Position numbers and translations under genes: made by a program
In this document: positions 30,694 through 50,623 of the stretch, in pieces
Layout: the number at the start of each line of letters is the position of its first letter
Numbering within the stretch: position 1 is the stretch's first letter
The notes under the pieces: model-generated
What the model was told of the DNA's origin: nothing
The model's database searches: none
The model's input: only the letters and a program-made list of their open reading frames with translations
From: Escherichia coli
GTDB taxonomy: Bacteria; Pseudomonadota; Gammaproteobacteria; Enterobacterales; Enterobacteriaceae
Direction: 5' to 3' (one strand)
DNA: 64,000 bases
NCBI RefSeq assembly: GCF_051903065.1
Contig: NZ_CP178438.1

Positions 30694-30934
30694 AGTGTCA
30701 TTCAATATGGTTTTTAGGAGTTTCTTTAGGTTGACAATATTTAATATTGCGTCTCCACATGCGATATTTCTTAAATAATGTTTTATTATTACCACTTTTA
30801 ATTCAGGGATAATGTGAGGTTATTACCCTCAAATAATATGAGATAAATAGTGCTACAACATTGCATTTTTGCCCCGATTTATCCATGATCGAATTGTGAC
30901 ATTTGTCATACAACGAATAGGTTTTGTACTTACT

Positions 30935-32518
30935 ATGGAATGGATTGCCGATCCGTCTATCTGGGCCGGGTTAATCACGCTGATTGTGATCGAACTGGTC
31001 CTCGGCATTGATAACCTAGTCTTTATTGCCATCCTCGCCGAAAAACTACCGCCGAAGCAGCGCGACCGCGCACGGGTTACCGGGCTGTTGCTGGCGATGT
31101 TAATGCGCCTGTTACTGCTGGCGTCAATCTCCTGGCTGGTCACCCTGACTCAACCGCTATTCAGCTTTCGCTCGTTTACCTTTAGCGCCCGCGACTTAAT
31201 CATGCTGTTTGGTGGTTTCTTCTTGTTGTTCAAAGCCACGATGGAGCTGAACGAACGGCTGGAAGGGAAAGACAGCAATAACCCCACGCAACGCAAAGGT
31301 GCGAAGTTCTGGGGCGTGGTGACACAAATTGTGGTACTGGACGCCATCTTCTCACTCGACTCGGTGATTACAGCCGTCGGGATGGTCGACCATTTACTGG
31401 TCATGATGGCCGCCGTGGTTATCGCTATCAGCCTGATGTTGATGGCCAGCAAGCCGTTAACGCAATTTGTTAACAGTCACCCGACCATCGTTATTCTCTG
31501 CTTAAGCTTCCTGTTGATGATTGGCTTTAGCCTGGTGGCGGAAGGTTTCGGCTTCGTCATTCCGAAAGGCTACCTGTACGCTGCCATTGGTTTCTCGGTG
31601 ATGATCGAGGCGCTCAATCAGTTGGCTATCTTTAACCGGCGACGTTTTCTTTCCGCTAACCAGACGCTGCGCCAGCGGACTACCGAAGCGGTAATGCGCC
31701 TGCTTAGCGGGCAAAAAGAAGATGCGGAACTGGACGCCGAAACCGCGTCCATGCTGGTGGATCATGGTAACCAGCAGATCTTTAATCCGCAGGAACGGCG
31801 GATGATTGAGCGGGTACTTAATCTTAACCAGCGTACCGTCAGCAGCATTATGACGTCGCGCCACGATATTGAGCATATCGATCTCAACGCGCCGGAAGAA
31901 GAAATCCGCCAGTTGCTGGAGCGAAATCAGCATACGCGGCTGGTGGTTACCGACGGTGATGACGCAGAAGATTTGCTCGGTGTTGTTCACGTTATCGACC
32001 TGCTACAACAGTCTCTGCGCGGCGAACCGCTCAACCTGCGGGTGTTGATTCGCCAGCCGCTGGTGTTCCCGGAAACCTTGCCGTTGTTACCTGCCCTGGA
32101 GCAGTTCCGTAATGCCCGCACGCACTTTGCTTTTGTGGTGGATGAGTTTGGCTCGGTGGAAGGGATTGTGACATTAAGTGACGTCACTGAAACCATTGCC
32201 GGTAACTTACCGAACGAAGTGGAAGAGATCGACGCCCGCCATGATATTCAGAAGAATGCGGACGGTTCCTGGACGGCGAATGGTCATATGCCGCTGGAAG
32301 ATCTGGTGCAATATGTGCCGCTGCCGCTGGATGAAAAACGTGAATATCACACCATTGCCGGGCTGTTGATGGAGTATTTGCAGCGTATTCCAAAACCTGG
32401 CGAAGAAGTTCAGGTAGGGGATTATTTGCTTAAAACGTTGCAGGTAGAAAGCCATCGCGTGCAGAAGGTGCAGATTATACCGCTGCGTAAGGATGGCGAG
32501 ATGGAGTACGAGGTGTGA
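30935..32518 (+). CDS. yegH: Inner-membrane protein YegH (TerC-family membrane domain plus CBS/CorC-type domains)
   Basis: Track ORF is 549 aa; likely start [13 protein letters not shown]... (527 aa). Confidence 0.88.
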
Positions 32519-32780: not shown

Positions 32781-33806
32781 ATGAAAGTATCAACTCTTGG
32801 TATCGACCTGGCAAAGAACGTTTTTCAGCTTCATGGTGTCGATCATGAAGGCCATACTATTTTGCGTAAAAAGCTCACCCGGGCTAAGTTTGTTCAGTTT
32901 GTGATTCAACTGGAACCTTGTCTGATTGGCATGGAAGCCTGCTCATCCAGTCATTATTTTGCGCGATTATTCACCCGCTATGGTCATGAGGTAAAACTCA
33001 TACCTCCGCAGTATGTGAAGCCTTATGTGAAAACGAACAAGACGGATGCAGCAGATGCTGAAGCAATCTGCGAAGCGGTAACCCGTCCGAATATGCGTTT
33101 TGTTCAGATAAAAAACGAAGAGCAGCAGGCCGTTTTAGCGTTACACACTGAACGGGGAATACTTATCCGTGAGCGGATTGCCTGTGCCAATAGTTTAAGA
33201 GCCACACTTGCTGAGTTTGGTATTACGATTGCGGCCGGACAAAGCCATTTAACCCGTGAGCTGCCAGCCATTCTGGAGGATAGCGAAAATGGTTTATCTC
33301 CCTTTGTCAGAACCAGCATCTACAGACAGTCTAAACATATCCGGGAACTTGAAGAACAAGTTAAACAGGTAGAAGAAGCTCTGGCCTCCTGGTATAGAAC
33401 GCAGGAAGCCTGCCAGAGAATGGCCAAAATCCCGGGGGTTGGCATGCTAACGGCCACTTATGTGGTAGCAGCAGTGGGTAATGCCCGACAATTCAGTACC
33501 GCAAAGCAGTTCGCTTCATGGCTGGGGCTGACACCAAAGGAACATTCCAGCGGCGGGAAACAGCAACTGGGAGGGATCAGCAAACGTGGAGATGGATATT
33601 TCCGATACCTGCTGGTTCACGGCGCACGCGCACTTACCGCCTGGGTCAACCGAAACGGCGCGGTTGAGGAGAATTCCTGGCTTCAGGGACTCCTTGAGCG
33701 GAAGCACTACAATGTAGCTGTTGTCGCCATGGCGGCAAAAACAGCGAGGATCATGTGGTCAATGTTGTCACACAATACTGAATATCAACCTCGGCAGCTC
33801 GCCTGA
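32781..33806 (+). CDS. IS110-family transposase/recombinase (DEDD N-terminal domain plus Transposase_20 C-terminal domain)
   Basis: 341-aa ORF: N-terminal MKVSTLGIDLAKNVFQLHGVD and C-terminal IPGVGMLTA...GLTPKEHSSGGKQQLGGISKRGDGYFR motifs characteristic of IS110-family recombinases. Confidence 0.85.
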   Translation: MKVSTLGIDLAKNVFQLHGVDHEGHTILRKKLTRAKFVQFVIQLEPCLIGMEACSSSHYFARLFTRYGHEVKLIPPQYVKPYVKTNKTDAADAEAICEAVTRPNMRFVQIKNEEQQAVLALHTERGILIRERIACANSLRATLAEFGITIAAGQSHLTRELPAILEDSENGLSPFVRTSIYRQSKHIRELEEQVKQVEEALASWYRTQEACQRMAKIPGVGMLTATYVVAAVGNARQFSTAKQFASWLGLTPKEHSSGGKQQLGGISKRGDGYFRYLLVHGARALTAWVNRNGAVEENSWLQGLLERKHYNVAVVAMAAKTARIMWSMLSHNTEYQPRQLA

Positions 33807-42269: not shown

Positions 42270-43622
42270 GTGTTTATTGGTTTTGATTACGGTACAGCAA
42301 ACTGTTCAGTGGCGGTCATGCGTGACGGTAAACCGCACTTGCTAAAAATGGAAAACGACAGCACGCTGCTGCCTTCAATGCTTTGCGCGCCAACGCGTGA
42401 AGCGGTAAGCGAATGGCTGTACCGCCATCATGATGTTCCGGCAGACGACGATGAAACGCAGGCGCTGTTACGTCGGGCGATTCGTTATAACCGTGAAGAA
42501 GATATCGATGTTACGGCGAAAAGCGTGCAGTTCGGTCTTTCCTCACTGGCACAGTACATTGATGATCCGGAAGAAGTGTGGTTTGTGAAATCACCAAAAT
42601 CGTTCCTCGGTGCCAGCGGCTTAAAACCGCAGCAGGTAGCGCTGTTTGAGGATCTGGTCTGCGCAATGATGTTGCACATTCGCCAGCAGGCGCAGGCACA
42701 GCTGCCAGAAACGATTACTCAGGCGGTGATCGGTCGCCCGATCAACTTCCAGGGGCTTGGCGGCGATGAAGCAAACACCCAGGCGCAGGGGATTCTGGAA
42801 CGCGCGGCGAAGCGTGCCGGGTTTAAGGATGTGGTATTCCAGTACGAGCCGGTCGCGGCTGGGCTGGATTACGAAGCCACCTTGCAGGAAGAAAAACGGG
42901 TGCTGGTGGTGGATATCGGCGGTGGTACGACTGACTGTTCATTGCTGCTGATGGGGCCGCAGTGGCGTTCGCGTCTCGATCGTGAAGCCAGCCTGCTGGG
43001 TCACAGTGGTTGCCGTATTGGCGGTAACGATCTGGATATCGCGCTGGCGTTTAAAAACCTGATGCCGTTACTGGGCATGGGTGGCGAAACCGAAAAAGGC
43101 ATCGCCCTGCCGATTCTGCCGTGGTGGAATGCGGTTGCCATCAACGACGTACCTGCGCAGAGTGATTTCTACAGTAGTGCCAACGGTCGTCTGCTTAACG
43201 ATCTGGTACGCGATGCCCGCGAACCGGAAAAAGTGGCCCTGTTACAGAAAGTCTGGCGTCAGCGTTTAAGCTATCGCCTGGTGCGTAGCGCAGAAGAGTG
43301 CAAAATTGCTCTTTCAAGCGTAGCGGAAACCCGCGCCTCACTGCCGTTTATCAGCGATGAACTGGCTACGCTGATTAGCCAGCAAGGGCTGGAAAGCGCC
43401 CTCAGCCAGCCACTGGCGCGGATTCTGGAACAGGTGCAACTGGCGCTGGATAACGCCCAGGAAAAACCGGACGTTATCTACCTGACCGGCGGAAGCGCCC
43501 GTTCTCCGCTGATTAAAAAAGCGCTGGCAGAACAGTTGCCGGGCATTCCGATTGCAGGCGGCGATGACTTTGGCTCCGTCACCGCCGGGCTGGCACGCTG
43601 GGCGGAAGTGGTGTTTCGTTAA
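42270..43622 (+). CDS. yegD: Hsp70-like (actin-fold ATPase) protein YegD
   Basis: Track ORF is 471 aa from an upstream ATG; the conserved sequence begins at the in-frame GTG 42270 (FIGFDYGTANCSVAV...), giving 450 aa. Confidence 0.85.
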   Translation: MFIGFDYGTANCSVAVMRDGKPHLLKMENDSTLLPSMLCAPTREAVSEWLYRHHDVPADDDETQALLRRAIRYNREEDIDVTAKSVQFGLSSLAQYIDDPEEVWFVKSPKSFLGASGLKPQQVALFEDLVCAMMLHIRQQAQAQLPETITQAVIGRPINFQGLGGDEANTQAQGILERAAKRAGFKDVVFQYEPVAAGLDYEATLQEEKRVLVVDIGGGTTDCSLLLMGPQWRSRLDREASLLGHSGCRIGGNDLDIALAFKNLMPLLGMGGETEKGIALPILPWWNAVAINDVPAQSDFYSSANGRLLNDLVRDAREPEKVALLQKVWRQRLSYRLVRSAEECKIALSSVAETRASLPFISDELATLISQQGLESALSQPLARILEQVQLALDNAQEKPDVIYLTGGSARSPLIKKALAEQLPGIPIAGGDDFGSVTAGLARWAEVVFR

Positions 43623-43634
43623 TTGAAAAATGGC

Positions 43635-45584
43635 TCAGCAGCGGCTTAAATCTGCCTGCGCCTGAGCCAGTTTTTCTGCCGCCTGACGTAACGGTTCCAT
43701 CAACGGCATGGTCCGTGCTGGAGCATGAAGGCGGAATCGCTGCAACTCTGTCGCGCCGACAGTCAACGCCGATTCCAGCCGATGTCGTTTGGCGGCCATT
43801 TTCGCCATTACCGCTTGTCTTTCTGCAGGCGTTACCGCTTCGTTCGGCCTGAACACAAAACGGCGTTCACAGCTCGCTTTCCAGTCGATGACCGCCTGGG
43901 TCAGATGATCACCAAACCCTTTAACTTGCTTAACCCCACGACGGGTAACATCCGCGGCTGTTTCAATACCAAAAGACCGTAACGCCGCTTTACGCGCAGG
44001 GCCAACGCCGGGAATAGAGGCAGCATCAATAAAAAATCCCTCCAGAAACTTCTGCTTCTGCCGTTCCCTTGCAGTGTCGTGAAGTGCTGCCAGAGCACGT
44101 TTTTCTTCTTCCGGTAACCCGAGAATTTCGTCCTTCATTTTTTCGAGCATCGTCCGTTTGGCGATAAAACCTTCCAGCCCGCCCAACTGTTGGATCTGGT
44201 TGACTAAATGGTCATAGTCCATTTTCGCGCGATTAAATGCCTCACGGCGTTGCTGGATTTCTGCTTTATAAGCTTTGCTTGTCAGACTGCCAATAATCCA
44301 GATAGCCGCCAGCACAGGAACCAAAATAATATAACGCGGTTCTGCCTGAAGGCCGCAAAGCAACAGCGATAACGCTGACAGTGCGATCTCAATCAGAATG
44401 ATGTATTCGCGCCGTAACAGGCCTAAAGGAAGCGGCCTGCCAGTCGGTTGGAAATGATCGGGTAATGGCAATTGCAATGCTGGCGGTGCTACTGACGCCA
44501 TCACCATCGCCCAGACTTTCGCCAGCACAAAATCACCGCCGGTGGTAATGACCTCTTCACCGAGATCAATAAAATAGATAACGCCTTGATTATCCAGCGT
44601 ACACCACGGGCAGTCAGTCAAATGAGCGGGGTAAACATGCATTGCTGAAACGGTACATTTCTTTAACTGTTGGCGTAGAGAGTCCAGTGCCGCTACCCAC
44701 GCTTTAGCCGTCGGACGCCCCGTTGCCACGCCACTTTCCGTGAATGCCTGCTGAAACATGGCTTCAACATCGCCCGGTAACATCGACAGCGGAATAGATC
44801 GTGGCGGCGGTTTTAAACCACGCCGCTGATTATCTGACGCGTAGGCATAACGGAAATGGGCAATATCCGTCTCCAGCGCATTACCCGCATCAGAGATAAG
44901 CGGCACACCAGAATAAGGATGCCGCCCACCAAACAAGACGTGAAAAATCAGCAACGCAAGGCCAAAATTATCGTGATTTTCTGTGCGTTCAAAACCGACA
45001 AATGATGGCAAGGTTTGTAGCTCTGGCGGCGTAAAATGCGACACGCCAACTTCGCATAAATGCAACGTTCCATTGGCGTTAATCTGAAAGGAGTCGCTGT
45101 CGATCAACACCACTTTGCTGTCGCGACCTACCATAAAGCTGTTCTGGTTTACGTCACCCACGACGTGCCCGTGCTCGTGAACCGTAGCAAAAGATGAAGC
45201 AATATTACGCGCAACATAGAGTAGAAAATCCCACGCACAATGAGGGTAACTCTGGCGACGATGTGCCGGGCTATAGATCATATGAATCGGTTCTTTACCA
45301 GAAACTTTTGGCATCATAAAACCGATAACTTTTCCGCCTCGTCCACCGTGAAGCGTTGCCTGCGGCCAGGCGACATAATTCAGCAACTGTGCATCAGCTG
45401 TCGCAGCCATAAAGGCAAGTTTGTCCTGTTTTAAGGCGGGTGGCGGCGTGTGATAAATCTTAGCGACGCTATCGACAAACTCCTCGATATCATAAACCGC
45501 GCCTTCGCCACCTTTGCCCAGTTCACGGCCTGGCGTAACGCACTCACCAGTAGCAGTATATAAAGTGGGTTTCATGGTAACCAC
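43635..45584 (-). CDS. yegI: Atypical Ser/Thr protein kinase YegI (kinase-like N-terminus, TM segment, C-terminal helix-hairpin-helix region)
   Basis: 649-aa ORF; lysine-containing kinase-like N-terminal motifs; membrane segment; overlaps the downstream phosphatase gene start. Confidence 0.85.
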   Translation of the reverse strand: MVTMKPTLYTATGECVTPGRELGKGGEGAVYDIEEFVDSVAKIYHTPPPALKQDKLAFMAATADAQLLNYVAWPQATLHGGRGGKVIGFMMPKVSGKEPIHMIYSPAHRRQSYPHCAWDFLLYVARNIASSFATVHEHGHVVGDVNQNSFMVGRDSKVVLIDSDSFQINANGTLHLCEVGVSHFTPPELQTLPSFVGFERTENHDNFGLALLIFHVLFGGRHPYSGVPLISDAGNALETDIAHFRYAYASDNQRRGLKPPPRSIPLSMLPGDVEAMFQQAFTESGVATGRPTAKAWVAALDSLRQQLKKCTVSAMHVYPAHLTDCPWCTLDNQGVIYFIDLGEEVITTGGDFVLAKVWAMVMASVAPPALQLPLPDHFQPTGRPLPLGLLRREYIILIEIALSALSLLLCGLQAEPRYIILVPVLAAIWIIGSLTSKAYKAEIQQRREAFNRAKMDYDHLVNQIQQLGGLEGFIAKRTMLEKMKDEILGLPEEEKRALAALHDTARERQKQKFLEGFFIDAASIPGVGPARKAALRSFGIETAADVTRRGVKQVKGFGDHLTQAVIDWKASCERRFVFRPNEAVTPAERQAVMAKMAAKRHRLESALTVGATELQRFRLHAPARTMPLMEPLRQAAEKLAQAQADLSRC

Positions 45585-46333
45585 AGCGCCAGTGCCAACG
45601 TTTTATCATCATCGGTACGCTCGTTTACCGCCGGGCTGGACAAAAACTGCTTTAACAATTCAGGTAATAAATCGAGCTGTTCCTGCGTTGCTGCCGCCAG
45701 TCCATTGAAAAAAGGGGTAAAGAAAGGCACATGCGGAGAATTATCCAACATATTTAACGCCAGTCGCTGGATACCATCCGTAAATGCTGCAACTTTATGC
45801 ACACGCTCAGTGCTGGTGAAAGTTTCCAGTCTGGAAACAGCATCTTCATCGCTAATGAAATGCGTCATATTGGCATATTCACCCACCATCGGCGTGAGCG
45901 GCAGTTCCAGACCACGACCAAAATCCACCACTACACCGCCGTCGCCAATTTGCATAATCAATGTGCCGTTAGCCGATGAAATCAATCCCAGAAACGTGCA
46001 GGCAAAATCGCGAACTGCTAATGCTTTGGCTTCTGCCTCGGCAAAAAGTCGTTGACGAATGGTCAGTACCATATTTGTGGCGAGGACATCATTAAGCCCC
46101 AATTCACCGTCCTGTACTTTTTGCACCATAAACGCCATCGCTTCATTGACGGCGAGCTTCGCGCCTTCTCCTCCCTGCGAAACGCTACCTGCGCCATCAG
46201 CAAGGAACATCACCAGTAATGGCTGCTGGTCATTTAGCCAGGCAACCTGCATCTGGCAGGCATCCTGACAAGGTAAATCAGCGCTAATGTGCGACGTTCC
46301 AACAGCGGATGCATAAACCAGACGCCAGCTCAC
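45572..46333 (-). CDS. pphC: PP2C-family protein phosphatase PphC (YegK)
   Basis: 253-aa ORF (…[20 protein letters not shown]…) consistent with an atypical PP2C fold; operonic with yegI and yegL. Confidence 0.8.
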
Positions 46334-46989
46334 ACTGACGTCCAGCCTTTTGGCGCTTCCAGCACAACTTCCGTTCCCGGCGTGGAGCGGGAAACCGAAC
46401 GCAGCGAACTGGATAACCAGCTAAACAGTTCACGGAATTGTAATCCCTGCAGTGGCAAAGGCTGACGAACGCTGATTTGTGCCAGAGTCTTCATATCCGC
46501 CCCCTGAACACCGATGGAAAAGAAGGCAAACTTCTTATCTTCTTCCCCCTGAAACACTTTGTTGGCGGCAGCCTGCCACTCATCGGTTGGTGCACCATCG
46601 GTGATTAGGAAAATCCACGGGCGATAATACGAAATACCATTTGCGCGGTACTCACGTTTCCTCTTTTCAACCATATCCAGGGCTTTGGTAATGGCGGCCC
46701 CCATAGGCGTATCCCCTTGGGCAAACAGGATGGGCGGGAAAAAGTTAGCGGCGCTGGTAAAGGGTTGTTCCACATGCACCGGGCCGAACGTCACAATGCC
46801 GAGTTCCACTCTTTTTAAAGCCAGCGGATCAGCAAGCAGTTCATCACGAAAGGTAACCAATCCGGCGTTAAGTTCATTAATGGGTCTACCGTTCATCGAA
46901 CCAGAAACATCCAGCAGCAGAATGCAGGGGCAACGTGGTTCCGGGTTACTGGCAGAATCGCTGGTGGCAAACATGATTTGTTCGCTCAT
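46330..46989 (-). CDS. yegL: von Willebrand factor A domain protein YegL
   Basis: 219-aa ORF with a vWA MIDAS-like motif (LLLDVSGSM). Confidence 0.85.
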
Positions 46990-47164
46990 AAGAAATCATT
47001 TCTTAGAGAATTATTGAGGTCCGGTATCATACCGACTGCAATAATGAAATAAGAGCAAACGAAGAAACTTTCAGAATTAGTCCCGGCGGCGCAGAAAATT
47101 TTGCTATTCGCCTCGCAAGAACGGAGAGCCGTCGATTGACACTAAGGGCGGAGTGACATAATTT

Positions 47165-47315
47165 CAGGAGTGAGGGTTAGGGAAAGGTTTCCCCCTCCCC
47201 CTGGTGTTCTTAGTAAGCCTGGAAGCTAATCACTAAGAGTATCACCAGTATGATGACGTGCTTCATCATAACCCTTTCCTTATTTAAGGCCCCTTCCTCG
47301 GGAGGGGCTTTCCCG
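47165..47315 (+). ncRNA. sibA: SibA antisense sRNA (antitoxin to ibsA); ends approximate
   Basis: ttgaca / cataat promoter-like elements around 47139-47163; antisense to ibsA; GC hairpin ccccttcctcgggaggggc followed by a T-rich run. Confidence 0.55.
47210..47269 (-). CDS. ibsA: Type I toxin IbsA (19 aa hydrophobic peptide)
   Basis: Minus-strand translation gives MMKHVIILVILLVISFQAY with an AAGGG Shine-Dalgarno-like sequence upstream. Confidence 0.8.
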   Translation of the reverse strand: MMKHVIILVILLVISFQAY

Positions 47316-47499
47316 TTTCAGCATCCCGCTGAAATCGTCGGCTTACCTCCTTTCGCCATGCATGCAGTCTATCGCTGACTTGCGGATAAAATAGTTTCCA
47401 GTGTGATTATTGCGTAACGTCTCGCAAAGAATATTTGCTGGCAGGATCGCAGACTGCAAAGCCTGCAGATTGACAATCTGACCGTGAAGGCATACTTTC

Positions 47500-47620
47500 A
47501 GGAGTGAGGGTTGAGCGGGGTTTCCCCCGCCCTGGTAGTCTTAGTAAGCTGGCCAGCTAATGACTAAGAGCACCACGATGATGAGTAGCTTCATCATGAC
47601 CCTTTTCTTATTAAAGGATG
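47500..47620 (+). ncRNA. sibB: SibB antisense sRNA, apparently lacking its native 3-prime hairpin
   Basis: ttgaca / catact promoter-like elements at about 47471-47497; homology with the sibA copy stops near 47618. Confidence 0.45.
47541..47597 (-). CDS. ibsB: Type I toxin IbsB-like (18 aa hydrophobic peptide)
   Basis: Minus-strand translation gives MMKLLIIVVLLVISWPAY; paralogous to ibsA. Confidence 0.75.
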   Translation of the reverse strand: MMKLLIIVVLLVISWPAY

Positions 47621-47961: not shown

Positions 47962-48324
47962 ATGTTAAAGCTATTTGCAAAGTACACCTCGATTGGTGTG
48001 CTGAACACACTTATACACTGGGTGGTTTTTGGTGTATGTATCTATGCCGCGCATACCAATCAGGCTCTGGCAAACTTCTCAGGTTTCGTTGTGGCTGTGA
48101 GCTTTAGCTTCTTCGCGAATGCAAAATTCACATTCAAAGCATCGACTACAACGATGCGCTACATGTTATATGTCGGGTTCATGGGAACACTGAGTGCTAC
48201 TGTTGGATGGGCTGCTGATAAGTGCTCGCTTCCTCCAATTATCACTCTTATCACCTTCTCCGCCATCAGCCTGGTGTGCGGTTTCGTCTATTCAAAGTTC
48301 ATTGTCTTTAGGGATGCGAAATGA
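47962..48324 (+). CDS. gtrA: Bactoprenol-linked glucose translocase GtrA
   Basis: 120-aa small 4-TM protein of the GtrA family; start codon of the next gene overlaps its stop. Confidence 0.85.
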
Positions 48325-49241
48325 AAATATCTCTGATTGTTCCTGTCTTCAATGAAGAAGATGCGATACCAATTTTCTATAAAACGGTACGTGAATTCGA
48401 AGAGTTGAAGCCTTATGACGTCGAAATTGTATTCATAAATGACGGAAGCAAAGACGCCACGGAATCAATTATTAACGTTCTGGCTGTTTCAGATCCGCTA
48501 GTTGTTCCGCTGTCATTTACACGAAACTTTGGTAAAGAACCAGCATTGTTTGCAGGGTTAGACCATGCAACGGGCGATGCTGTTATTCCTATTGATGTTG
48601 ACCTGCAAGACCCGATTGAGGTTATTCCTCATCTGATTGAAAAGTGGCAGGCAGGTGCCGATATGGTGCTGGCAAAACGTTCAGATCGTTCAACTGATGG
48701 AAGATTAAAACGGAAAACCGCTGAGTGGTTCTATAAGCTTCACAATAAAATAAGCAATCCAAAGATTGAAGAGAATGTCGGCGATTTCCGCCTGATGTCT
48801 CGAGAGGTGGTAGAAAATATCAAACTACTGCCAGAGCGTAACCTGTTTATGAAAGGCGTTTTATCTTGGGTTGGCGGTAAGACGGATGTTGTTGAATACA
48901 TCCGTGCTGAACGCGTTGCCGGAAGCACAAAATTCAATGGCTGGAAGCTATGGAACCTGGCGCTTGAGGGAATTACAAGTTTCTCGACCTTCCCCTTACG
49001 CGTGTGGACTTACATCGGCCTACTTGTTGCGGGACTCTCGTTCCTTTACGGGGTGTGGATGATTTTCGACACATTGGTGTTCGGTAATGCTGTCCGCGGA
49101 TATCCTTCTATTCTTGTATCTATTCTCTTTTTAGGTGGCATTCAGTTAATTGGTATTGGGGTGCTGGGAGAATACATCGGCAGAATTTACGTAGAAGTTA
49201 AAAATCGTCCTAGATATGTACTTAAAAAAATAAAAGGTTAG
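48321..49241 (+). CDS. gtrB: Bactoprenol glucosyltransferase GtrB (GT2)
   Basis: 306-aa ORF with GT2 N-terminus ([11 protein letters not shown]...FINDGSKD) and two C-terminal TM segments. Confidence 0.9.
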
Positions 49242-49246
49242 AGAAT

Positions 49247-50623
49247 ATGCGCATTTCAAAAAATGAAAAATACCTTTCATTGATTATGATAGCATTTTAC
49301 TTGCCATTTTTATTATCTGATTTACCTTTTAGGGACGATCTAAGCAGGACTTATTGGGGTTTTGTTGGGTTGTCTCAATTAGGTAGACCATTGGCAGACA
49401 TTGTTTATAGTTTGGTTGGATTTGGCTATGAGGGTGTTAACCTCAGCCCTATGCCTAAAATTATAGCGCTATTAATAATATTATCGTCTGCGATATTTTC
49501 ATACAGAACGCTATTCAACTCAATAGGAGCAACCGGGTTACTCTCTTTATCTATTTTCTTTGCAAATCCATTTATTATTCAAAATTTTGCATATCAGTAC
49601 GACTGTTTTCCAATGGCTTTATCTATTTTATTGGCGACATTATCTGTATTATATAGACCAAGATCAAGCTATTTTTATTTTCTTAGCGCATCATTTTTAT
49701 TAACTAGCGCAATATCACTTTATCAAGCATCTATATTTATTGCGGCATCTTTATATTTATGTAAGATCACTATTTATTTCGTTAACGATAGAAATCGCAG
49801 AGATGTTTTTATAGAATGCATGCTTACTCTTTTGTCTTCTTTTTTCTCTATTGCATGTTACATGGTGATTTTACTTTTTGTAGAAAATGGCGTGTCAAAA
49901 CGAGCTAGCATTACAGGGCCAAGTGGCGTTATTAGCAATATCGAGTTCCTTTTGGATAGGTTAAATAGCCTTTACCACTCGGTTTATATTTTTTTTATTA
50001 TTTTGTCATTAGTATTAATATTCTCTCTCTTGAGGATTTTTATCCTAAAAAGATATATCAATTTATGCGTGATATTACTAATACTTGTTGCGCTGCTAGT
50101 CTCTTCCCTACTCCCATCTGTCATCCTTAAGGAAGGGTTCGCCGGACCAAGAGTTTTAATGTCTATTTGTTCGGTATTTATATTTATATCTATCATTGCA
50201 ACCGGAAAAGAAAAATACGTATACGCCATGGTGTTATCTGTTTTAATGATGCATTCCATGTCTATTTCATACGCATTTTCAGGTGACATTAAGGCACAAT
50301 ACGATAGATACTCGATGATATCATCTCTTGTTTATAAAGATATTGATAATTACGTGTCGTCAAATACAGCAAAAATATACATTTCTTGCAAATCAACCCC
50401 ATCACAAAGAGAGTACGTTTTCTATAAATTCAACAATCACATAGCATGGCTCAACCCAGAAGAGGCTTGGGCTATCAGGTTTTTCATAAGAAATAATGGC
50501 GAGAGCAGGGTGGTGCACTCATGGGATGAATGCTTTGATATAAATGGAGGTAAGATCGTTAAAGAAAATGCATTTTATAAAATGGTTGAAAATAAAAATT
50601 CTTACTATTTCATAATGAAATAA
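49247..50623 (+). CDS. Serotype-specific O-antigen glucosyltransferase (GtrC-type polytopic membrane protein)
   Basis: 458-aa very AT-rich, highly hydrophobic ORF immediately after gtrAB; family call is by context and composition. Confidence 0.6.
   Translation: MRISKNEKYLSLIMIAFYLPFLLSDLPFRDDLSRTYWGFVGLSQLGRPLADIVYSLVGFGYEGVNLSPMPKIIALLIILSSAIFSYRTLFNSIGATGLLSLSIFFANPFIIQNFAYQYDCFPMALSILLATLSVLYRPRSSYFYFLSASFLLTSAISLYQASIFIAASLYLCKITIYFVNDRNRRDVFIECMLTLLSSFFSIACYMVILLFVENGVSKRASITGPSGVISNIEFLLDRLNSLYHSVYIFFIILSLVLIFSLLRIFILKRYINLCVILLILVALLVSSLLPSVILKEGFAGPRVLMSICSVFIFISIIATGKEKYVYAMVLSVLMMHSMSISYAFSGDIKAQYDRYSMISSLVYKDIDNYVSSNTAKIYISCKSTPSQREYVFYKFNNHIAWLNPEEAWAIRFFIRNNGESRVVHSWDECFDINGGKIVKENAFYKMVENKNSYYFIMK

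Follow-up and report, generated by a model that had tools for sequence, protein, structure and literature searches.

Three-gene units that encode a vWA protein, a PP2C phosphatase and a Ser/Thr kinase are established as TerY-P triads, and a TerY-P-like module has been validated as an antiphage system (PMC11090510, PMC4978471, PMC7699616); our definition of TerY-P is taken from the first 2 of these sources. The Ter/CoCoNuT triad of Anantharaman et al. (2012), as presented in PMC11090510 and PMC4978471, combines a TerY-like vWA protein carrying a metal ion-dependent adhesion site (MIDAS), a PP2C phosphatase and a Ser/Thr kinase with a small Cys-rich module behind it, has been proposed to act as a metal- or phosphorylation-dependent switch and often lies near DNA-processing or restriction genes. 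In the PknB/PstP and PrkC/PrpC pairs, the kinase and the PP2C phosphatase are encoded in the same operon, the kinase becomes active by autophosphorylating its activation loop and the phosphatase dephosphorylates the kinase. Here, we compare with these systems the operon yegL-pphC-yegI, which encodes a vWA protein, a PP2C phosphatase and an atypical kinase in a stretch of 64,000 nucleotides (the window, referring throughout to the whole of this stretch) from the Escherichia coli contig NZ_CP178438.1 (assembly GCF_051903065.1). To our knowledge, YegI and PphC are the sole Hanks-like kinase/PP2C phosphatase pair described in E. coli. The locus, its enzymes and the triad concept were already known, and the novelty in this respect is low; added here are the removal of the adjacent gene yegD from the unit, the mapping of the insertion, the mobility and fixed gene order of the cassette, its distinctness from TerY-P, and the definition of the YegI and YegL motifs. 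We are highly confident in the anatomy and evolutionary history of yegL-pphC-yegI as an inserted, self-contained cassette. The best explanation overall, to which we give slightly better than an even chance, is that of a mobile three-gene phosphorylation switch which an ancestor of Escherichia acquired between yegD and ibsA and which purifying selection has maintained.

The locus is a genuine annotated E. coli operon and no chance pattern. The 5.3-kb stretch that carries it is 100% identical to the chromosome of E. coli 23CRST027, where RefSeq names the genes yegD, yegI, pphC and yegL, and 5406 of 5426 complete E. coli genomes contain the locus at a coverage of at least 80%. The operon is uninterrupted in the window, and K-12 strains carry an extra gene, yegJ, between pphC and yegI. 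The initial annotation, made from the letters alone, had described yegD as convergent with 3 overlapping genes for a membrane-anchored atypical kinase, a PP2C-like phosphatase and a vWA protein, and had likened the 3 to the triads of Ter-linked systems. All 4 open reading frames are present in this arrangement (Table 1), the 3 genes are joined by 4-nt overlaps, the activities and the membrane topology have been published (10.1101/303594, 10.1101/819920), and the gene order and domain set match those of the TerY-P triad of PMC11090510 and PMC4978471. An in-frame GTG upstream, at 45584, would be an alternative start of yegI, from which the protein would have 649 aa. Promoter and terminator scans returned no more sites than in shuffled sequence and none upstream of yegL, an outcome that neither favours nor excludes a cassette-borne promoter.

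The closest comparison is with the TerY-P locus of E. coli G3/10 (L057 7001-10260), located via the construct start in Table S1 of 10.1101/2022.08.27.505566, the 3 proteins of which are labelled 'TerY-P anti-phage system...' in RefSeq. Both loci are compact three-gene units with the same order of vWA, Ser/Thr phosphatase and Ser/Thr kinase genes, and the kinase loops are alike (GDxxxxN...LIDxD in YegI versus HGDFQTGN...IDYD in TerY-P). Profile alignment with hhalign related the YegI family to the TerY-P kinase with a probability of 75% (E 2.6e-5) over 167 columns that include the GDxxxxN...IDxD loops, and the YegL family to the G3/10 TerY vWA protein with a probability of 91% (E 1e-6); a profile comparison of PphC with the TerY-P phosphatase supported no relationship. 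Pairwise similarity is near zero: BLASTP gave E-values of 0.008 (vWA proteins) and 0.028 (kinases), and the phosphatases did not match at all. The TerY model of PADLOC reached E 0.015 on YegL, PphC remained unmatched and YegI received generic kinase matches only, while no TerY-P model in an NCBIfam search matched any of YegL, PphC and YegI. TerY-P kinases have an oligonucleotide/oligosaccharide-binding (OB) fold at the C-terminus and a zinc ribbon at the C-terminus of the kinase (PMC11090510). In YegI, the kinase domain is instead accompanied by a Cys/His cluster, which may correspond to the zinc ribbon reported for TerY-P kinases, and by a membrane hairpin, a coiled coil and a double helix-hairpin-helix module, (HhH)2; the model shows no OB fold. 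The 2 systems also differ in frequency: TerY-P is rare in E. coli, the G3/10 version occurring in 4 of the 5426 genomes beside an insertion sequence (IS) element and a type I restriction-modification system, whereas yegL-pphC-yegI is near-universal. Antiphage activity has been demonstrated for TerY-P against T7-like phages (Gao et al. 2020); no phage phenotype for yegI, pphC or yegL is reported in the literature searched. Judged by these comparisons, the cassette shares the design of TerY-P but falls outside the family that current tools call TerY-P, and the two probably have a deep common ancestry.

Other described systems resemble the cassette in fewer respects. The operon has the same vWA/PP2C/kinase set as the Ter/CoCoNuT triad, together with a Cys-rich segment, but the E. 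coli locus is without neighbouring ter, McrBC/CoCoNuT, WXG100 or FtsK genes, and YegI has extra membrane and helix-hairpin-helix parts compared to the kinase of that triad. The neighbours in E. coli are yegD, the ibs/sib toxin-antitoxin loci and a gtr island or mdtA, with no restriction association. Unlike PknB and PrkC, YegI has no extracytoplasmic sensor such as PASTA, carries VGD and DSD motifs and has an obligatory vWA partner. The combination of a signalling enzyme, a helical spine and a C-terminal HhH DNA-binding module recalls DisA; this is an analogy of design with no evidence of homology, as DisA is a diadenylate cyclase, soluble and octameric, and the likeness consists of a small generic fold with non-significant E-values. 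Finally, the PADLOC models of 2 single-gene kinase defences, PD-T4-6 and the kinase domain of Mokosh MkoA, gave weak matches to YegI (E 2e-4 and 3e-4, respectively), which cover approximately 100 to 125 residues of the kinase core, are too weak for membership and come from systems with no PP2C or vWA partners.

The history of the locus is apparent from the comparison with sister genera. In Salmonella and Citrobacter, the genes run asmA-dcd-udk-dgcE-alkA-yegD-ibs-mdtABC, the ibs toxin gene coming next to yegD without anything in between, and YegD, encoded at the same alkA-yegD-ibs-mdtA position, is 88-90% identical to that of E. coli. In an alignment of the intergenic region between yegD and ibs, the sequence that follows the yegD stop codon in these genera (CGCCTCGCAAG...ATTGACA) resumes in the window at approximately 47109. 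This places the left edge of the insertion directly behind the stop codon of yegD and, with approximation, its right edge at 47108. The closest YegI homologues outside Escherichia are approximately 63% identical and come from rare Klebsiella species, followed by those of Burkholderiales and Chromobacterium at approximately 60%, and homologues outside the genus are patchily distributed. Hence, the description of the triad as conserved core genes in the initial annotation holds within Escherichia and fails beyond it. A Ter linkage, mentioned there for the comparable triads, was not evident at this locus: the sole Ter-family gene nearby, yegH, is approximately 10 kb away and is not a Ter linkage because it belongs to the backbone shared with Salmonella and Citrobacter, which lack the triad. 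The third point to be given up is the membership of yegD in the module. The gene is adjacent to the triad because the cassette of approximately 3.5 kb landed at that site, and it is a vertically inherited enterobacterial backbone gene, unrelated to the triad.

The adjacency itself invites a different explanation, namely a four-gene module in which YegD would cooperate with the triad, for instance by remodelling or loading YegL or YegI. The stop codons of the convergent yegD and yegI are 12 nt apart, the terminator scan found no terminator-like site within this gap, and the 2 transcripts must therefore overlap; the pair figures as an excludon in the list of PMC12288877. In addition, overexpression of yegJ, the gene inserted within the K-12 operon, strongly induces yegD (PMC13232886), and Hsp70-like proteins are among the abbreviations of Figure 7 of the CoCoNuT paper, which depicts extended Type III-A operons with duplicated TerY-like vWA genes. 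However, a survey of 1 genome per species, in which 49 triad loci (45 outside Escherichia, with flanks of up to 10 kb on each side) were searched by tblastn with the 4 E. coli proteins, placed YegD beside the triad exclusively in Escherichia, with no YegD homologue at any of the other 45 loci. Moreover, yegD occupies this site in Salmonella and Citrobacter, where the triad is missing, the contrast between its 88-90% identity and the 63% of the nearest YegI points to different histories, and the insertion site accounts for the adjacency. As an ancestral functional unit, the four-gene module is largely refuted, and we consider cooperation of YegD with the triad very improbable. Regulatory interplay specific to Escherichia is possible, given the overlapping transcripts, the excludon listing and the effect of yegJ. 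YegD also fails to show the full Hsp70/DnaK layout of a nucleotide-binding domain, a substrate-binding domain and a lid: its match to Pfam HSP70 (1.2e-24) has its best stretch at profile positions 2-205 of 599, that is, in N-terminal positions only, and the protein has 450 residues versus approximately 600. It scores 810 bits over positions 1-450 of 450 of its own NCBIfam equivalog, PRK11678, versus 86 bits against the DnaK model, for which the cut-off is 822 bits.

Outside Escherichia, the cassette behaves as a unit. The order vWA, PP2C, kinase in the same orientation is kept at 43 of the 45 surveyed loci, which represent approximately 10 phyla, and the other 2 loci are cut by contig ends. 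The family is found in Proteobacteria, Acidobacteria, Cyanobacteria, Planctomycetota, Actinomycetota, Chloroflexota, Nitrospirota, Myxococcota and Armatimonadota, as well as in other Escherichia species. In Candidatus Methylophosphatis (L017 1761-2363, 9231-11065), the order is also kept, with approximately 6.9 kb between the vWA and PP2C genes; the kinase match ends at residue 338 and the copy is disrupted. The family further occurs in 73 plasmid records from organisms other than E. coli, including plasmids of Agrobacterium, Rhizobium and Pseudomonas, such as pQBR103, and 46 of 82 matching plasmid records are typed as conjugative. Carriage on plasmids and transposons, together with the pairing of the kinase with its own phosphatase, of which YegI is a substrate, could indicate a selfish addiction module akin to toxin-antitoxin systems, with the kinase as a growth-arresting toxin restrained by PphC and a cassette that would persist chiefly by stabilising itself and its carrier elements. 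The interruption of the K-12 operon by yegJ and the rise of yegI mutations in the long-term evolution experiment, where one swept (10.1101/017020), suggesting a cost, would fit this explanation as well. Against it, no toxicity of YegI has been reported, the best-conserved part of the cassette is the vWA protein, which would be superfluous in an addiction model, and addiction alone does not lead one to expect fixation on the chromosome throughout a genus with purifying selection on all 3 genes. We therefore regard an addiction module as very unlikely.

The neighbourhoods of 7 non-Escherichia loci were read with Pfam-annotated neighbours. One locus lies in a dense defence island with genes for an SLFN-like helicase, MazG-like, ScoMcrA, SNase, BrxR and Wadjet proteins; another is carried as cargo by a Tn7-like element, with AbiH and a KAP NTPase next to it; a third adjoins a type I restriction-modification system and Mrr; and a fourth lies a few kilobases from GmrSD and a type I system. 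PLD and Mrr nucleases are also found among triad neighbours elsewhere. The cassette is thus often, although not always, located in conflict-type neighbourhoods. This mobile, island-associated distribution and the precedent of TerY-P argue for an origin as a conflict system; in its first form, the family was probably a TerY-P-type cassette for conflict or defence. A fourth gene was sought among the 2 nearest open reading frames on each side of approximately 40 loci (144 frames, counted per family and not per locus) and among the frames directly downstream of the kinase gene. No conserved fourth gene or effector emerged from the 144 frames, the commonest family being SNase (n = 4), and the frames directly 3' of the kinase gene were unrelated from locus to locus. 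The lack of a recurrent neighbour family and of related downstream frames indicates that the 3 genes are the whole unit. In several Burkholderiales-type relatives, an SNase gene of the same orientation immediately precedes the vWA gene; SNase could be an optional effector of this subgroup, and the E. coli locus has no such gene.

The catalytic part of the switch has been established biochemically. YegI is an active kinase that prefers Mn and autophosphorylates in an Mn-dependent manner at 3 serines with second-order kinetics, which activates it; activity is lost in the K39D and D141N mutants, and the protein retains 7 of 10 canonical Hanks residues, HRD being replaced by VGD and DFG by DSD, which is essential (10.1101/819920). 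K39, D141, D159, D161 and S162 are invariant among 29 homologues from several phyla. Searches against Pfam returned for YegI solely a sub-threshold match to HHH_5 (E 0.003), Pkinase failing to reach E 0.01, and its relatives gave weak Pkinase matches under the gathering threshold. YegI acts like a Hanks kinase, yet it is an outlier of the Hanks family. The kinase domain is directly followed by the Cys/His cluster, in which C307, H313, C322 and C325 are invariant in both family alignments inspected; with no match to a Pfam zinc ribbon, the cluster is a putative zinc-binding module, as judged from the arrangement of these residues. Next comes a hydrophobic hairpin with Kyte-Doolittle peaks of 2.3 at approximately residue 400 and 2.1 at approximately residue 424. 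Its sequence is poorly conserved, but it is hydrophobic in most homologues and missing in a few relatives. YegI is a two-pass inner-membrane protein with both termini in the cytoplasm (10.1101/819920).

The C-terminal cytoplasmic region of YegI is conserved, although some distant relatives replace or extend it with TPR or PEGA domains. A model of residues 436-646 is all-helical, with a pLDDT score of 93.6 and no beta-barrel, and the embedded (HhH)2 module modelled alone scored 87.6. The best Foldseek matches of the segment containing this module (503-587) were the N-terminal domain of Rad51/Dmc1, Hjm, DisA, Y-family polymerases and RuvA, all of them (HhH)2 DNA-binding modules, at probabilities of up to 0.99 and non-significant E-values (0.2 or higher). 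A profile search of the Protein Data Bank (PDB) with the HhH segment retrieved exclusively HhH modules, all with E > 0.01 and none a significant relative, the best being the HhH extension of ribosomal protein L32e at 0.025; the same search with the whole YegI family found no significant relative either, with a segment of a clostridial toxin as the best match (E 6.6e-4). Based on the hairpin motifs and the model, the (HhH)2 tail is likely to bind DNA non-specifically.

PphC, once called YegK, is a PP2C-like phosphatase with Mn-dependent activity that removes phosphate from YegI (10.1101/303594), and it keeps 6 of 8 canonical residues according to published analysis. It matches Pfam PP2C_2 (5.6e-48), and the invariant residues D24, D46-G47-A48-G49, D186-G187 and D242-D243 include the metal-binding aspartates. 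YegL matches Pfam VWA (4.3e-10). Its MIDAS residues D27, S29, S31, T94 and D131 are invariant in 42 sequences, as are N15-P16 and P18-R19 of an N-terminal NPEPR motif, in which E17 is kept in at least 90%, and S193, S200, S202 and W216 of a C-terminal serine-rich motif. Identities across phyla range from 49% to 84% for YegL, from 30% to 74% for the best-matching segment of the kinase and from 31% to 65% for PphC. YegL, with an intact metal-binding motif, is thus the best-conserved member of the triad. Overproduction of YegL raises DNA damage, and in E. coli the protein ranks as a strong 'DNA damage-up' protein (10.1101/354589).

Taken together, YegI autophosphorylates, PphC reverses this modification, and the 3 overlapping genes, which are translationally coupled, are passed on together and in a fixed order across phyla. 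A DNA-sensing, defence-type function of this switch in E. coli is a tentative proposal, for which we see somewhat less than an even chance. The membrane hairpin would anchor YegI at the inner membrane while the kinase and the HhH tail lie in the cytoplasm, where the C-terminus, comprising the coiled coil and the double HhH, would bind DNA. DNA near the membrane, whether from an entering phage or plasmid or from a chromosome that is damaged or out of place, would gather YegI molecules, and their higher local concentration would favour autophosphorylation in trans over dephosphorylation by PphC. YegL may serve as a metal-dependent partner, either as a substrate, with the SVSxS motif conserved near its C-terminus, or by reading ligands that are phosphorylated or acidic. 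As output, proteins of the cell or of the invader would be phosphorylated on Ser/Thr, and removal of the phosphates from YegI by PphC would reset the switch.

How the cassette has been maintained bears on this proposal. The ratios of nonsynonymous to synonymous substitution rates (dN/dS) relative to 3 other Escherichia lineages are 0.05-0.10 for yegL, 0.08-0.09 for yegI and 0.14-0.17 for pphC, as compared to 0.03-0.05 for yegD, indicating that all 3 cassette genes are maintained by purifying selection, with pphC as the fastest-evolving of the 3. Fixation in Escherichia, purifying selection and the lack of a signal in defence databases make domesticated housekeeping signalling a serious rival: the Ser/Thr pair and a metal-sensing vWA protein would regulate host physiology, for example in stationary phase, in response to Mn or other metal status or under envelope stress, with no role in conflicts with phages or plasmids. 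Both enzymes prefer Mn, TerY-P triads were first proposed as metal-sensing phosphorylation switches (PMC11090510), weak expression of the locus in stationary phase has been reported, and many homologous loci have housekeeping neighbours. However, the triad is absent from the syntenic site in sister genera, is patchy across phyla and is carried on conjugative plasmids and a Tn7-like element, frequently next to restriction, Abi or nuclease genes; furthermore, the locus is silent in laboratory culture, and a C-terminus of the DNA-binding type is not expected of a metal sensor. Serious as it is, we consider a pure housekeeping role unlikely.

Several observations weigh against a defence-type DNA sensor. 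No phenotype, substrate or inducing condition is known for the triad, and transcription of yegL-pphC-yegI was undetectable under any condition tried (10.1101/303594). Fixation of the cassette in nearly all E. coli, under purifying selection, is unusual for a defence system, since such systems usually turn over quickly. The triad gave no significant match to any PADLOC system or candidate family, bar the weak generic similarity of the YegI kinase. The HhH assignment is based on sub-threshold scores, which are consistent but statistically not decisive. Finally, of the 7 neighbourhoods read, 2 lie among ordinary metabolic genes with no defence-related neighbours and 1, with SNase genes and many unannotated small open reading frames, is ambiguous. 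The boldest version of the proposal, in which the cassette is an overlooked class of innate immune sensor, distinct from TerY-P and fixed in the Escherichia core genome, that would detect DNA entering or lying at the inner membrane, with YegL reading or relaying the phosphorylation state, strikes us as doubtful; such a class would have been overlooked due to the yegJ insertion in K-12 and because the models of defence finders are blind to it.

With the cassette delimited in this way, the unit to study comprises 3 genes and yegD can be dropped. A foreign, plasmid- and transposon-borne cassette that is often located near restriction or Abi genes makes invader DNA, phage and DNA damage the obvious stimuli. 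K-12, in which the operon is split by yegJ, is a poor model, whereas B strains and natural isolates carry the uninterrupted operon. Were the defence function to hold true, the locus would be a rare case of an immune-type cassette turned into a stable core gene set.

Table 1. Coordinates of genes, junctions, YegI segments and neighbouring features. Positions are those of the window unless preceded by the label of another locus.
Feature	Position	Strand	Description
yegD	42270-43622	+	450 aa; Hsp70 nucleotide-binding-domain-like (actin-like ATPase); neighbour outside the cassette
yegI	43635-45575	-	646 aa; membrane-anchored atypical Ser/Thr kinase; 'protein kinase YegI' in RefSeq
pphC (yegK)	45572-46333	-	253 aa; PP2C-type Ser/Thr phosphatase
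yegL	46330-46989	-	219 aa; cytoplasmic vWA protein
yegL/pphC overlap	46330..46333	-	yegL stop and pphC start; GTGA, read from the sequence
pphC/yegI overlap	45572..45575	-	pphC stop and yegI start; ATGA, read from the sequence
Gap between the convergent yegD and yegI stop codons	43623..43634		12 nt
Inserted cassette	43623..47108		~3.5 kb relative to the Salmonella/Citrobacter backbone; yegI, pphC, yegL and ~120 bp upstream of yegL
YegI kinase domain (~aa 1-300)	44676..45575	-	Placed by conserved residues and hhalign to the TerY-P kinase
YegI Cys/His cluster	44601..44657	-	C307-x5-H313-x8-C322-P-W-C325, directly after the kinase domain
YegI hydrophobic hairpin (~aa 390-433)	44277..44408	-	2 predicted transmembrane helices, from hydropathy
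YegI C-terminal cytoplasmic region (aa 436-646)	43638..44270	-	Long helices/coiled coil with embedded double HhH
YegI (HhH)2 module (aa 516-565)	43881..44030	-	2 canonical GhG hairpins, IPGVGPARKAAL and VKGFGDHLTQAV
SNase genes of relatives	L010 7932-8474; L026 7929-8471; L063 7917-8501 and 12709-13224	Same as vWA gene	
SibA	47136-47284	+	Antitoxin small RNA, Rfam RF00113, 149 bits
SibB	47470-47612	+	Antitoxin small RNA, Rfam RF00113, 133 bits
ibsA	~47210-47269	-	Coding sequence of type I toxin
Low-GC island	47962-50623, onward to ~55000	+	GC down to 0.32-0.45
yegH	30869-32518	+	TerC-family membrane protein with CBS and CorC domains
IS110-family transposase gene	32781-33806	+	Between yegH and asmA

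Individual copies of the cassette genes show further variation. In Escherichia sp. MOD1-EC7003, yegI contains an in-frame TAG (L007 8680-10617), and in Escherichia sp. E1V33 the yegI match breaks at approximately residue 514 (L008 4509-6447); the kinase gene is now and then inactivated in Escherichia lineages and, in K-12, disturbed by yegJ. The pphC gene of E. coli E69 (L019 2980-3738) differs from that of the window with a synonymous divergence (dS) of 0.77, versus 0.27-0.37 for yegL, yegI and yegD, which suggests an allelic replacement limited to the phosphatase gene and agrees with a published remark that PphC is unusually different between B and K strains. A typical phage gene was also considered and rejected, as YegL had 3 partial weak matches in phage genomes, on unannotated metagenomic contigs.

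On the far side of yegD, an IS110-family transposase gene, absent from this position in the Salmonella and Citrobacter loci, separates yegH from asmA. Directly past the right edge of the cassette, the small RNAs SibA and SibB are antisense to the tiny type I toxin genes ibsA and ibsB, of which Salmonella and Citrobacter have 1 ibs copy at the corresponding position. The low-GC island that follows encodes a GtrA-like flippase, a family-2 glycosyltransferase and a GtrII-type glucosyltransferase; these genes, which stem from phages, convert the serotype by O-antigen glucosylation. Between them and mdtA, the identical genome has hypothetical genes, a phage head-binding pseudogene and an IS481 element. 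Since K-12 has ibsB directly followed by mdtA, this intergenic region is a repeated landing site for foreign DNA.

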